Positions 53,037 through 57,696 of a stretch of 64,000 nucleotides of DNA are shown here, piece after piece. Origin of the DNA: a virus; the IMG/VR virus record IMGVR_UViG_3300025117_000032; one strand, given 5' to 3'. Positions within the stretch are counted from its first letter, which is position 1. The number at the start of each line of letters is the position of its first letter. A model generated the notes under the pieces. The model was given only the letters and a program-made list of their open reading frames with translations. It was not told where the DNA came from and did not search any database. The translations under genes and the position numbers were made by a program.

Positions 53037-53819
53037 ACTAACCCAAACCCCCATCCATCTAGGAACACATAATCACCAGGATCCTTGGGGTGGTTGAACA
53101 TTTTTTCCGCTGGTTTTTCATACCTATTGGGGTACACCACAACTTCTTTTCCAGCGAAAGCTGCTAGTGTCTTTCCCCATGAATCAGCACCTATGAATTT
53201 TGAACAGCTTCGTATTAACCTAAATGAATTCTCAAAGTCTGTCACCCACACATCACCAAAGGGTTCTCCTATTTTTTCCTTGTCCTTCTTTGACCCAATC
53301 AAACAAACTCTTCCATACCCAGAATACTCATTGGCAATGGAGTTTAACACAACCCTTGGAATCTCTTTGATCTTTGTTGGATCATCGGCACCACCAAAAG
53401 GCTGAATGACCGTCAACACTTGCTCATTTGGTATCGGGAAAGCCCATGCTGGGTATCGTTTCACTCCGTAGTAATCAAACACATTTGTCTTTCCACACTC
53501 AATCCAATCTTCAACATACATAAACTGCCTTGGTGTTACACCAGACCCAACAAAATTTGGGTGTTGAACAAGAAGCTCCCAAATAATCGGACTAGTGTGA
53601 AATGATGCTCTAGGGTAAAACCACCATTTTTTCACCTTTGGAAACTGCTTGGATATCTCTCTGATTGTGGTTACATTGTTGCACACAAAAACAACATCTG
53701 TGTGAGAATCAATGTTATCGTAAAATGTTGCCATCAGTAAAAAAAAAATCACCTAGACCACCTATTCCAAAATAGAATTTGTTCTCTACATTTGCTAACA
53801 ACCCTTGCATGAAACTCAT
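53033..53819 (-). CDS. Glycosyltransferase family 9-like, +1 frameshift in a T10 run
   Basis: ATG 53819 (ATGA overlap) gives ...FGIGGLGD, and +1 frame continues FFLLMATF...FIGADSW; T10 at 53739-53748. Confidence 0.65.
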
Positions 53820-54550
53820 TTTTTCTCCCATCGTTTTTTCTGGCTTAAACTCATTTTTAATCTTACTTCTTCTGATACTGGTTTCCTTTTTTTAGCAGCC
53901 TCACTCATTTTTTTTCTCTCATTTGGATCGGAAAAGCGTTTCTTAATTGCCACTGATAATGCTTCTCTATGAGATTTAGATTTTTTTCCCCCATATGAAT
54001 TTTTATACCACCCACGTTTGCTTTTTTCTAACCTTGTTTCACTTATCTTTTTCTTCGTTTTTTCACTATGTTCTTTTCCATACATTCCATTTGTTTCTCC
54101 TGTTAATCTAACTCCATACATTGGGTTGTTTTCTCCAGAATATTTCCCTTTGGCTTTTTCGCTCATTTTTTTCTTTGTTTCTTCGCTGTGTTTTTTTCCA
54201 TAAAATGGGTTTGTTTCTCCTGTTAATCTAACTCCATACATTGGGTTGTTTTCTCCAGGACTTGCCCCATCTCCACCAAGAGTTTGATTATATCCAGACC
54301 TAAATGTGCAATATTCTTCGATGTACTTTATTTCTAGTTTTCCAAGCTCCTCAAATAACAAAGTTTCATCAATTTTTTCTATGGAAAAATTTTCACTTCC
54401 ATATTTCCTGATTGCTCTTTGTATGGAACAATTGATTTTTAATGAGTTTGCATCATATATGTGTTTAAACCACCTTTTTTCCATAGTAAGAGTTGTTTTA
54501 CCAACATACTGTTTTCCATTTATTTTGTTTGTTATCAAATATATTACCAT
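53816..54550 (-). CDS. GIY-YIG homing endonuclease with NUMOD3 repeats
   Basis: VIYLITNKINGKQYVGKT, GYNQTLGGDG, NPFYGKKHSEETKKKMS. Confidence 0.9.
   Translation of the reverse strand: MVIYLITNKINGKQYVGKTTLTMEKRWFKHIYDANSLKINCSIQRAIRKYGSENFSIEKIDETLLFEELGKLEIKYIEEYCTFRSGYNQTLGGDGASPGENNPMYGVRLTGETNPFYGKKHSEETKKKMSEKAKGKYSGENNPMYGVRLTGETNGMYGKEHSEKTKKKISETRLEKSKRGWYKNSYGGKKSKSHREALSVAIKKRFSDPNERKKMSEAAKKRKPVSEEVRLKMSLSQKKRWEKK
54090..54258. repeat. 49-bp exact direct repeat, 120-bp period
   Basis: 54090-54138 = 54210-54258; encodes GENNPMYGVRLTGETN twice. Confidence 0.9.
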
Positions 54551-55279: not shown

Positions 55280-55984
55280 TTATAGATAAACCCAATCTTT
55301 CCATTTTTTTGTTTTTGACTTTAATCTATTACTAATTGTCATTCTGGTAACACCAAACACCTTGCTTGCTTCATCTAAAGAATCAAACTGTCTACAACCA
55401 ACAACAAATGACTTATGTAGTTTGTGATTTTTACCACGCATTTTATCTGAAAACGATTCTCTATCTCTTTTTTCCCAGGATTTAGAAATCCCCCTGGATT
55501 GTTTTACTTTGAACTCTAGGCTCTCCATTATTCTTTTTTGTTTGTGCCTAAATTCACTATTTCCCCATAACTCGTTCATTATCTCTCTTGCCCTATTTTT
55601 TCTTTTTGGGGTGTTTTGTAATTTCTTTTGCGCTTCACACAATCTTTTTTTTGTCTCTGGACTATTCATCCTTAATTTGTGTTTAGTTTTTGCTTCGTTT
55701 GACCATTCTCTTCCACTAATTCCCCCTGTTTCTAGGTTGTATGTGTCTCTGCGAAAAACCCACTTGTGGTCAACATATTTTTCTTCTTCAATCATTTCTT
55801 CGTATGAAAACAACTCAACCAATATCTCCCTACTAAAGTTTTGTTTTCCATATTTTCGGATTGCTTTTGTAAGCAACACCCCTGACCCCAAATACCCATC
55901 ATTGAGATTTTTTGTTTTATGAACGCCCCTGTATTTTTTTCCATTTATCAAGTTTGTTGTTTCATAAAGAATGTAATACATCAT
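55280..55984 (-). CDS. GIY-YIG homing endonuclease (Seg-like) with C-terminal HTH
   Basis: YILYETTNLINGKKYRGVHKT..LNDGYLGSG; TYNLETGG; FDSLDEASK. Confidence 0.9.
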   Translation of the reverse strand: MMYYILYETTNLINGKKYRGVHKTKNLNDGYLGSGVLLTKAIRKYGKQNFSREILVELFSYEEMIEEEKYVDHKWVFRRDTYNLETGGISGREWSNEAKTKHKLRMNSPETKKRLCEAQKKLQNTPKRKNRAREIMNELWGNSEFRHKQKRIMESLEFKVKQSRGISKSWEKRDRESFSDKMRGKNHKLHKSFVVGCRQFDSLDEASKVFGVTRMTISNRLKSKTKKWKDWVYL

Positions 55985-57131
55985 GTTGAAAGTATTTTTC
56001 TATACCACTCACACCTTTCATTTGTAACATGCTCCAATGAATATTTTGGGTATACCAACTTATACAAATTTTCTGACAACTCTTTTCTCATTGCATCATC
56101 TAGTATCAGTTGCCGAATGTATTTGTGCCATAGCTTATGGTTTTTCCTTGGGTTGACCAACAACGCATTCTCCCTATGAGTTAACAACTGCTTGTAGACA
56201 TACAAATCAGATGCAATCAACGCTTTTTTGCACATACCAGTTTCAATTATCTTCAATTCAGACTTGCACTCATTGAATGTGTGTTCATCTAGCGGTGCCA
56301 AGCAAATGTCCACATGCTTATAGTGGTTTCCATATTGAGTTATGGGAAGTGTTGTCCTTCTTACATACTGTTCTGGTGTTGCCTTACCATTGTCGTTGAA
56401 TATGGCTTCAAATTTGTTCCATATGGACTCTTCTGGGGTTATTTTCCTTGTTCTTTCCTCTTTGGTTAGGGGATGTAATTCAGTAACAGTTCCCCTTGTG
56501 TCATATCCACACATAACAACCTGAATCTTACTAGCAATCTCCTTATCATTGAACAACACATTGAAAGTGCCCTTGATTTTGTCCAAATCTCTCTCATGAC
56601 TTGAGCCACCAATCCAACCAACCCTAACTCTATCTGATTCTGTGGTTGGGTTTTGCCACATCTTCAAATTGGGATCAATAGCATTTGGTATGATGTGAAC
56701 ATTTTTGTTTATGGTCCTTCTTATGTGTTCTGCATAGATTTCTGTGGTTGTTGTAACCCAATCAGCGCACCTTAGATTTTCAATGATTTGGTGATGGATA
56801 CCCTTCGCCACAACCATGTGATAAGCTGGGTGCCCAAAAAACGGCAGCCAGAAGTCGTCAATATCAGAAACAACAATCGCACCGGCTGTGCGAAATTTAT
56901 CAGCCCATAGTGGGGTTGTTTCAGGTTCGGCGATGCGTCTGTGATAGTGGACAATATCAAACTCCCCTATATCGTCCTCTGTTATTGGTTGCATTAGTCT
57001 AATGTCAACCTCAAACTCTTCCCCATGGTTTTTTTGTATCTCTTGTGCAACCCAAATTGATCGGTAAGCTAATAGTGCCCAACACCATAAGAATCGCTGG
57101 GTATGATTAAAATTCTAATTTTGTTGGGCAC
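55981..57131 (-). CDS. Glycosyltransferase (GT-B) interrupted by an 8-nt stop-containing gap
   Basis: GTG 57131 gives MPNKIRILIIPSDSYGVGHY-[TAG CT TAC]-RSIWVAQEIQKNHGEEFEVDIRL, joining in frame to 55981..56994 (DIDDFW, IPNAID, GWIGGSSH, FNECKSELKIIE). Confidence 0.8.
57064..57074 (-). other. Putative translational bypass element TAT-TAG-CT-TAC
   Basis: Synonymous Tyr take-off and landing codons flank the stop; an 8-nt skip restores the frame. Confidence 0.6.
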
Positions 57132-57135
57132 TATT
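57071..57135. repeat. 14-bp perfect inverted repeat spanning the start codon to the coding gap
   Basis: aatagtgcccaaca (57071-57084) / tgttgggcactatt (57122-57135). Confidence 0.9.
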
Positions 57136-57138
57136 TGA

Positions 57139-57696
57139 TCACCCACCTTTAATGAATCTGTCATATCTTTCATATAACTCTTCTTTCGTTATTGAACACT
57201 TTGCGTGCTTCGAACTGTTTTCCCCACGATATATTATGCTAAGATTGATAACGCAACCAATTATATGCGGGGGAACATCTTGTTTAAACCCCTCTAGGAC
57301 ACTAAAATTATGATCCAATGTGTATCCAGATGGTTGCAATATGTGTTTTGTTTGGATATATTCACTGTAATTTTCCAGTAAAGATATATCGGAATGCTTT
57401 GTGTACAAATTTACCAACTGTTTATATGCTTCCCATTTTGTTTTTGCAGAAAGTGGTGTCCAATATCCAGTTGACTCATGGTGGACCCTTATGCTATCTC
57501 TATTCTTTTCGTAAAAATTTTTTGATGCATCTGCGATTTTCATTAAACCAGGGTGGCATTCTTTTGTTAAACCTTTATTCCATGTGTCTAATCCAGAATG
57601 AGCGCAAGGTCTGCATTTCCAATTTTTATGCCGCCTTGTCCAATATCTTGGAAAAACTCTAATTAACCCACAGCCAACACAAGTTGCAGTATACAT
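57139..57696 (-). CDS. Free-standing HNH homing endonuclease
   Basis: CVGC..CRPC; WNKGLTKE; LDHNFSVLEGF...NLSIIYRGENSSK. Confidence 0.75.
   Translation of the reverse strand: MYTATCVGCGLIRVFPRYWTRRHKNWKCRPCAHSGLDTWNKGLTKECHPGLMKIADASKNFYEKNRDSIRVHHESTGYWTPLSAKTKWEAYKQLVNLYTKHSDISLLENYSEYIQTKHILQPSGYTLDHNFSVLEGFKQDVPPHIIGCVINLSIIYRGENSSKHAKCSITKEELYERYDRFIKGG

Follow-up and report, generated by a model that had tools for sequence, protein, structure and literature searches.

A conserved hairpin at the take-off codon of a probable short programmed bypass in a phage glycosyltransferase mRNA

The subject of this analysis is a GT4-type glycosyltransferase gene and an RNA hairpin near its 5' end, both contained in a 64,000-nucleotide (nt) stretch of the virus record IMGVR_UViG_3300025117_000032 (given as one strand and hereafter called the window). 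All genes of the glycosyltransferase region lie on the minus strand. The glycosyltransferase is interrupted by eight extra bases within the sequence encoding its GVGHYR loop, with the layout UAU UAG CU UAC, followed by CGA. The upstream frame ends in G V G H Y at UAU (57074-57072) and then meets UAG; the second frame reads Y R S I W V A Q E I Q K N H and onwards. Intact homologs read GVGHYRSIW at the equivalent site, and the eight bases of the window are therefore extra. In what follows, the codon before the stop (here UAU) is referred to as the take-off codon and the triplet after which decoding would resume (here UAC) as the landing codon. Directly upstream lies an open reading frame (ORF) resembling homing endonucleases, whose stop codon (57141-57139) is 3 nt ahead of the 5' arm of the hairpin.

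A preliminary description of the window had reported a perfect stem of 14 base pairs (bp) at this place, and the stem is present in the sequence: on the minus strand, 57135-57122 is the exact reverse complement of 57084-57071, giving 14 Watson-Crick pairs that enclose a 37-nt loop. The 3' arm terminates on the take-off UAU plus the U of UAG. When mismatches were allowed in the repeat search, the arms grew to 32 nt with 81% complementarity (57063-57094 with 57112-57143). No other perfect stem of ≥12 bp with a loop of 3-80 nt exists in the whole 64-kb window and first-order Markov simulations led us to expect 0.025 stems of ≥14 bp per window, making a chance origin unlikely, as had been supposed. 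Folding of positions 57180-57040 (141 nt) with RNAfold, a check suggested at the outset, returned -44.9 kcal/mol (z = -5.9), and none of 200 shuffled sequences was as stable. Both outer extensions of the stem proposed earlier can be drawn. One would join 57147-57141 to 57069-57063 by seven pairs, three of them G-U, and the minimum free energy (MFE) structure takes a variant of it; the other would join 57141-57137 to 57062-57058 by five pairs. A separate hairpin beginning at UAG was absent from the MFE structure of the window. No Rfam family reached its gathering threshold (the best, potC, scored 21.2 bits against 44, E = 0.14). Nor did a terminator scan call the stem, which is not intrinsic-terminator-like in its 37-nt loop and in having no U tract after it.

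DNA of relatives was obtained from N-terminally truncated protein homologs and from alignment-based scans of metagenome and IMG/VR contigs; an IMG/VR scan with a single protein had yielded two gapless loci only, and the alignment-based scans were required. The 337-aa ORF of the window itself is carried by seven contigs. A DNA search of the INPHARED phage records found no relative of the glycosyltransferase region. Many glycosyltransferase homologs in the protein search lack their N-terminus, and gene callers split or truncate these genes.

Counting the window, 18 gaps were found in 16 distinct gapped loci, with two gaps each in loci L007 and L112. Taken as extra bases relative to the intact reading frame, their lengths are 5 nt (one gap), 7 nt (two), 8 nt (seven), 9 nt (five), and 10, 11 and 12 nt (one each), such that the 9-nt and 12-nt gaps keep the frame. 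An in-frame stop opens all 18, and the gap of L004 has two consecutive stops. The gap sites correspond to three neighbouring codons of the G-V-G-H-Y loop: gaps follow the first Gly, the second Gly (or Ser) or the Tyr. The landing triplet is identical or synonymous to the take-off codon at 11 gaps and matches it at two of three positions at the other seven; among the in-frame 9-nt gaps (L004, L010, L112, L113 and L115), synonymous landing is seen in L004 and L112 only. The near-isogenic intact and gapped genes L117/L004 and L118/L011 differ by nine and five inserted bases, respectively, and the gaps are therefore clean insertions. In the sister loci L005/L010 and L007/L112, one and the same gap occurs in lengths of 8 nt and 9 nt. 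Across the 18 gaps, length and sequence vary and no conserved motif marks the 3' boundary. Two loci of a distant clade (L097 and L098, 37-38% amino-acid identity) are gapped too.

Each of the 18 gaps is accompanied by a contiguous stem of 8-14 bp, whose 3' arm ends at -2 to +1 nt relative to the third base of the take-off codon, and this stem is present in the MFE structure of the respective region (~130 nt each). The coding sequence ahead of the gap, whatever it is, serves as the 3' arm; stem sequences therefore differ between the three take-off classes, and the stem shifts with the position of the gap. In the two-gap loci L007 and L112, two nested stems were found, one for each gap. The 5' arm sits in an N-terminal extension of ~10-15 codons that is absent from gapless genes. 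The one conserved addition common to the gapped variants is a stem that ends at the take-off codon.

We quantified the pairing as the duplex energy of 15 nt, ending one base past the take-off codon, with the upstream 96 nt. Counting stems with G-U pairs permitted discriminated poorly between gapped loci and controls where the sequence is AT-rich, and Watson-Crick counts and these duplex energies were used in its place. The preliminary description had set the comparison with gapless homologs beforehand as the test that could refute its case, and the stem is not equally present there: the mean was -18.5 kcal/mol at gaps (n = 18; range -13.3 to -23.6) versus -6.7 kcal/mol at the three equivalent sites of 63 distinct gapless homologs (n = 189; 2% at or below -12). 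The corresponding Mann-Whitney test gave p = 1.6e-12, a value that overstates independence since the gapped loci are mutually related. The stem is thus confined to gapped genes. The closest intact relatives, L117 and L118, gave -7.4 to -11.4 kcal/mol (n = 6 sites), and in the strongest gapless control, L079, the pairing partner is an arm of an upstream terminator. The distant gapless locus L041 (2465-2560) retains a relic of the N-terminal extension (..NIITPVSHKIKVL..), the carrier of the 5' arm in gapped L097. This extension has no complementarity to the Gly-loop codons, and L041 may represent a lineage that lost its gap.

Covariation, likewise suggested as a check, was found among the gapped relatives. 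In a MAFFT alignment of the seven sequences of the first-Gly class, which was not fitted to structure, 93.9% of cells were paired and three of seven pairs showed compensatory double changes (eight cells). None of 500 shuffles reached the observed values, and registers slid along the alignment were 6-37% paired. For the other classes, inspection by eye revealed GGG/CCC versus GGA/UCC and CAC/GUG versus CAU/AUG among the window, L007, L011 and L112. With these compensatory changes, the movement of the stem among the three take-off sites and its doubling in two-gap loci, the tie between stem and coding gap that had been proposed from the window is strongly supported by comparative evidence. The elements of the window are collected in Table 1.

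Table 1. Positions of the glycosyltransferase gap, the hairpin and adjoining features in the window.
Feature	Position	Strand	Remarks
Take-off codon UAU (Tyr)	57072..57074	minus	Placed from the sequence and from intact homologs reading GVGHYRSIW
Eight extra bases	57064..57071	minus	Stop UAG 57071-57069, CU, landing codon UAC 57066-57064; decoding would resume at CGA 57063-57061
5' arm of the 14-bp stem	57122..57135	minus	Holds the in-frame GTG 57131-57129
37-nt loop	57085..57121	minus	Codes for N K I R I L I I P S D S Y; the MFE structure puts a small inner helix here
3' arm of the 14-bp stem	57071..57084	minus	Codons for (G)VGHY and first base of the stop; duplex energy -23.0 kcal/mol
Shine–Dalgarno (SD)-like GGUGGGUGAUC	57137..57147	minus	Located where the upstream ORF ends; 5' side of the outer extension, which is variable and bridges the gap by pairing with 57058-57069
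Outer extension, 3' side	57058..57069	minus	Gap, landing codon and next codons
Upstream piece, glycosyltransferase frame	57072..57173	minus	Conserved ATG 57173 (alternative start GTG 57131) to take-off codon
Downstream piece of the GT4 glycosyltransferase	55981..57063	minus	Resume codon to stop, 360 codons, intact
Homing-endonuclease-like ORF, 185 amino acids	57139..57696	minus	Directly upstream; HNH-like DH...NL...N..K motif in alignment; relatives with NUMOD3

The split genes are under purifying selection. In all 15 gapped loci that could be checked, the downstream ORF is intact, with 359-402 codons. Among the gapped lineages, synonymous divergence (dS) is saturated at a nonsynonymous divergence (dN) of 0.12-0.31, with dN/dS ratios of 0.03-0.22 where computable. 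The short upstream piece retains the enzyme's first strand and the KIRxL..PSD..G motif in its own frame. Such an intact split gene under selection is not accounted for by a pseudogene, by a sequencing error or by separate expression of a truncated protein.

We consider it probable that ribosomes on the mRNA of this phage GT4 glycosyltransferase make a short programmed translational bypass, a stop-hop, and that the hairpin acts as its stimulatory element on the 5' side. A ribosome translating the short upstream piece would arrive with UAU and UAG in its P and A sites, respectively. At this take-off point, the 3' arm would lie inside the mRNA exit path and the 5' arm would be free, ~50 nt upstream (≥30 nt behind), and refolding of the stem would compete for the E-site and P-site codons. 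As completion of the stem needs precisely these two codons, refolding should favour codon-anticodon release and forward movement of the mRNA. Peptidyl-tRNA(Tyr) would be released from UAU, the mRNA would be drawn forward by 8 nt, and the tRNA would re-pair with the synonymous UAC; decoding would then resume at CGA, restoring the GVGHYRSIW loop. After landing, the completed stem would stand 4 nt behind the landing codon (3-9 nt in relatives) and, by hiding the take-off codon, would render the move one-way. A helix is tolerable at such a distance from the P site, as exemplified by the SD duplex in prfB. The translational nature of the event, the action of refolding as a push or as a backstop, and the efficiency of the process are what we infer from the arrangement of these sequences.

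Of the three roles offered in the preliminary description—pushing a stalled ribosome forward by refolding, limiting ribosome loading, or presenting the gap to a nuclease and ligase—the push fits the geometry and published work best, and is put forward here as a proposal. Pairing of the exiting mRNA was proposed as a forward driver in T4 gene 60, where a 5' stem-loop is located 9 nt before take-off (bioRxiv 10.1101/2024.12.09.627546). A stable upstream hairpin near the E site stimulates a +1 shift at CUUUGA on 70S ribosomes without RF2 (PMC6321510), and an upstream hairpin blocks backward slippage (PMC6321510, PMC3639245). More generally, refolding hairpins upstream favour the forward and hinder the backward movement of both 70S and 80S ribosomes when a stop or hungry codon occupies the A site (PMC3639245, PMC6321510). 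Matched-codon stop-hops were observed at low level in synthetic constructs (PMC5009743). In a stronger version, which may be true but toward which we lean slightly less than away from it, the stem would be the main engine of a distinct, efficient class of short bypasses: an mRNA 'zipper' whose last pairs are the E-site and P-site codons, stripping the take-off codon from the peptidyl-tRNA and pulling the message forward by a few bases.

Several points weigh against a stem-stimulated hop. The case for a hop is one of comparative anatomy, and the kinship of the gapped loci mentioned above tempers it. At seven of the 18 gaps, the landing triplet is not synonymous with the take-off codon (GAU, UGC, AAC or CGC). 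The spacer between stem and landing codon (3-9 nt) is no tighter than the hop length, with no sign of a precise ruler. Stems of 8-9 bp may leave none of the 3' arm outside the ribosome at take-off, which renders a 'pull' geometrically uncertain; the stem may have a backstop role rather than a pulling one. In homologs of gene 60, the 5' stem-loop is not conserved (bioRxiv 10.1101/2022.08.31.505936). Finally, stems at two further micro-gaps are not above background. A metallophosphoesterase gene (window 40134-40183, minus strand) contains CUU UGA AGG CUU, in frame and +9 nt, with a 7-bp stem (GGUGAAA/UUUCACC) reaching from the SD/start region as far as base 1 of the take-off codon; the duplex energy is -9.4 kcal/mol versus -10.0 in the gapless relative L116. 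Outside the window, an RNase H/FEN-like gene (genome C1, plus strand, ~1340-1440) is split by AAU UAG GC AUG and has two alternative AU-rich stems of 8-9 bp at -10.9 kcal/mol. Its landing triplet is mismatched, and it may be a split gene rather than a hop. With both stems at background, the stem rule is limited to the glycosyltransferase family. A genome-wide scan for junctions of a short ORF, a stop and a long ORF with stems returned 25 of 2325, close to the chance rate and too noisy to be of use; one match, at genome position 120909, proved to be an ordinary ORF.

In one alternative, the hairpin would mainly control initiation, by sequestering the SD-like GGUGAUC and GTG 57131 until it is opened by ribosomes terminating on the upstream ORF, or by limiting ribosome loading. 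The preliminary description had placed the stem at a GTG start region, and GTG 57131 does lie inside the 5' arm; an in-frame start codon is also found within the 5' arm in L011 and in the outer stems of L007 and L112. The proximity of the upstream ORF's stop to the arm and the pairing of the SD-like motif by the outer extension speak for such control as well. However, in nearly all gapped loci a conserved ATG stands in frame 26-45 nt ahead of the 5' arm (57173 in the window, where it is at least as likely a start). In most relatives the 5' arm begins 13-45 nt after a conserved ATG, within the coding N-terminal extension, and the link to SD and start codon proposed earlier finds no support as a general property of gapped loci. 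Stems are also kept where the endonuclease gene is lost (L111, L112, L114, L097 and L098), and initiation control leaves unexplained why the 3' arm ends at the take-off codon and why two-gap loci have two stems. As the main function it is unlikely, though in this phage it could operate as a side function. Many MFE structures of gapped loci have an outer helix across the gap, but this helix varies and is not conserved. GGUGAU(G/C), complementary to the 3' end of 16S rRNA, is retained just 5' of the 5' arm (57137-57143 in the window), even where the endonuclease gene is missing; at several loci, pairing of this motif with the His-Tyr codons that follow the gap is possible, with an apparent compensatory change (GGUGGUG with CACUACC in L003 versus GGUGAUG with CAUUACC elsewhere). 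Alternatively, the inverted repeat could be a relic or signal at the DNA level, such as a product of fold-back repair at an endonuclease cut site or a recognition element, in a glycosyltransferase that is a decaying pseudogene or is expressed solely in N-truncated form. The co-occurrence of gap and arm-bearing extension with a homing-endonuclease-like gene speaks for this. Saturated synonymous sites combined with intact downstream ORFs and low dN/dS argue otherwise, as do an upstream piece that stays in frame with its motif and stems that stay perfect through compensatory changes. A relic would decay, as the extension of gapless L041 has, and we regard this explanation as highly improbable.

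A nuclease and ligase, or self-processing, might instead excise the gap from the RNA, with stem and outer helix presenting it as a bulge. The MFE outer helix indeed bridges the gap, which then sits partly within an internal loop or bulge, in the window, L003, L004, L012, L111 and L113. Yet a stop at the first position, which all 18 gaps have, would be unnecessary for excision, and so would a landing triplet that matches the take-off codon. These two features are left unexplained by the nuclease/ligase role envisaged in the preliminary description. The gap lengths of 5-12 nt, the missing 3' boundary motif, the unconserved outer helix and the negative Rfam search also render excision very unlikely; to our knowledge, no system excises such short segments from bacterial or phage mRNA. 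Conventional recoding, with the hairpin as a modulator of -1 or +1 frameshifting or the stop being read through, has an equally slim chance. In principle, a -1 shift could carry the ribosome over an 8-nt gap with three residues added, and the 9-nt and 12-nt gaps are in frame for readthrough. But the range of lengths and the 8-nt and 9-nt gaps of sister loci would each need another mechanism, whereas one hop explains all. Two consecutive stops in L004, the absence of a slippery heptamer at the gap of the window, and the inability of tRNA(Tyr) to re-pair at -1 also disfavour this option, and upstream hairpins attenuate -1 frameshifting (PMC6321510). The genome carries a cluster of 26 tRNA genes (C1 85277-103733), Gly(UCC) among them; tRNA-Tyr is not encoded in the genome, and the lack of a suppressor tRNA speaks against readthrough. 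A transcriptional skip by RNA polymerase was rejected by reasoning only: it needs no stop, and a 3-nt match cannot re-anchor the RNA-DNA hybrid.

Compared by layout only, the proposed stop-hop resembles the T4 MobA/gene 60 cassette in that a stop-containing insert interrupts a conserved part of a phage enzyme gene beside a homing-endonuclease-type gene, here a putative one. As in gene 60, the stop directly follows the take-off codon (UAG 57071-57069 in the window, and all 18 gaps) and take-off and landing codons match (UAU/UAC in the window). 'Hit and run' lineages that keep the gap after loss of the endonuclease are likewise common to both (bioRxiv 10.1101/2022.08.31.505936). The gene 60 gap, in contrast, measures ~50 nt rather than 5-12 nt, and the host gene here is a glycosyltransferase. 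The gene 60 mini-SD, 6 nt 5' of the landing codon, has no counterpart in the present gaps, which are too short for it. Nor is a nascent-peptide signal evident, take-off occurring 20-34 codons from the start; apart from the N-terminal sequence of the enzyme itself and a loose K-x-G-D, the upstream peptides share no conserved motif. In gene 60 the 5' stem lies 9 nt ahead of take-off, whereas the present one directly adjoins or covers the take-off codon. The present stem is also strictly conserved with covariation, unlike the 5' stem-loop of gene 60 homologs. The compact stem-loop that begins at the gene 60 stop is absent from the window. In L010 (1066-1095), the 9-nt gap pairs with the downstream R-S-I-W codons to form a 12-bp hairpin starting at the stop, reminiscent of the gene 60 take-off stem-loop; no other gapped locus has such a hairpin.

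Other recoding systems share parts of this arrangement. Synthetic stop-hops have the same succession of a codon, a stop and an identical or synonymous codon a few bases on, a layout shared by the in-frame 9-nt versions, but they are low-level, stimulator-free events in artificial constructs (PMC5009743), whereas the gaps described here are natural, conserved under selection and coupled to a dedicated stem. The upstream refolding hairpins of earlier studies are, like this one, stable and immediately 5' of the recoding site (here with the 3' end at the E/P site in 18 of 18), but act on single-nucleotide shifts at engineered or viral sites (PMC3639245, PMC6321510) as opposed to gaps of 5-12 nt with a stem that includes the P-site codon. 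In the byps of Magnusiomyces mitochondria and in candidate terminase genes of Streptomyces phages, short non-coding inserts are skipped as well, with take-off/landing matches that are sometimes imperfect and involve two-out-of-three pairing (PMC5009743, PMC10732093). Neither has a covarying 5' stem: the byps seem to be independent of mRNA context and depend on relaxed mitochondrial decoding (PMC5009743), and for the Streptomyces candidates the rare UUA codon is decisive. According to a 2016 review (PMC5009743), natural in-frame stop-hops were unknown, the bypass cases listed comprise only gene 60, the Streptomyces phage candidates and the mitochondrial byps (10.1101/2024.12.09.627546, PMC10732093), and our literature search found no natural short stop-hop.

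If yeast mitochondria are set aside, T4 gene 60 has been the one well-studied example of programmed bypassing, accompanied by a few candidates. The glycosyltransferase family contributes many natural variants, which differ in gap length, use three take-off sites, include double gaps, and occur with and without the endonuclease gene. The open question of whether pairing of the exiting mRNA drives bypassing forward thereby becomes testable in a 140-nt cassette. If the 'zipper' version were true, the family would provide a minimal natural system, with dozens of variants, for testing exiting-mRNA pairing as a bypass driver, and homing-endonuclease cassettes would repeatedly evolve a recoding device of their own. 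For annotation, the consequence is that gene calling breaks such genes into pieces or shortens them.

The homing-endonuclease-like ORF upstream belongs to a family found solely beside gapped genes. Full-length members occur in seven of the 16 distinct gapped loci (the window, L003, L004, L005, L011, L113 and L115), partial matches in L007, L009 and L010 (the copy in L009 being cut by the contig end), and none in the 63 gapless loci. Six gapped loci gave no match (L012, L111, L112, L114, L097 and L098); inspection by eye still reveals the final codons of the ORF in L012, L112 and L114, and gaps and stems persist at all six. Relatives of the ORF match PHROG homing-endonuclease families. In a fold comparison, matches to HNH-type proteins were weak (E above 0.2), and a profile search of solved structures with the ORF returned nothing. 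Most likely, the gap came with this endonuclease-like gene and protects against it, as in the T4 MobA/gene 60 cassette.

Inside the endonuclease-like ORF, we noted a promoter-like TTTAAA-17-TATAAT with 10 of 12 matches (window 57260-57288, minus strand), from which a transcript could begin shortly before the 5' region of the glycosyltransferase. Two GIY-YIG/I-TevI-like homing-endonuclease genes (window 55280-55984 and 53816-54550, minus strand) follow the glycosyltransferase directly on its downstream side, and the gene is thus flanked by three selfish nuclease genes.

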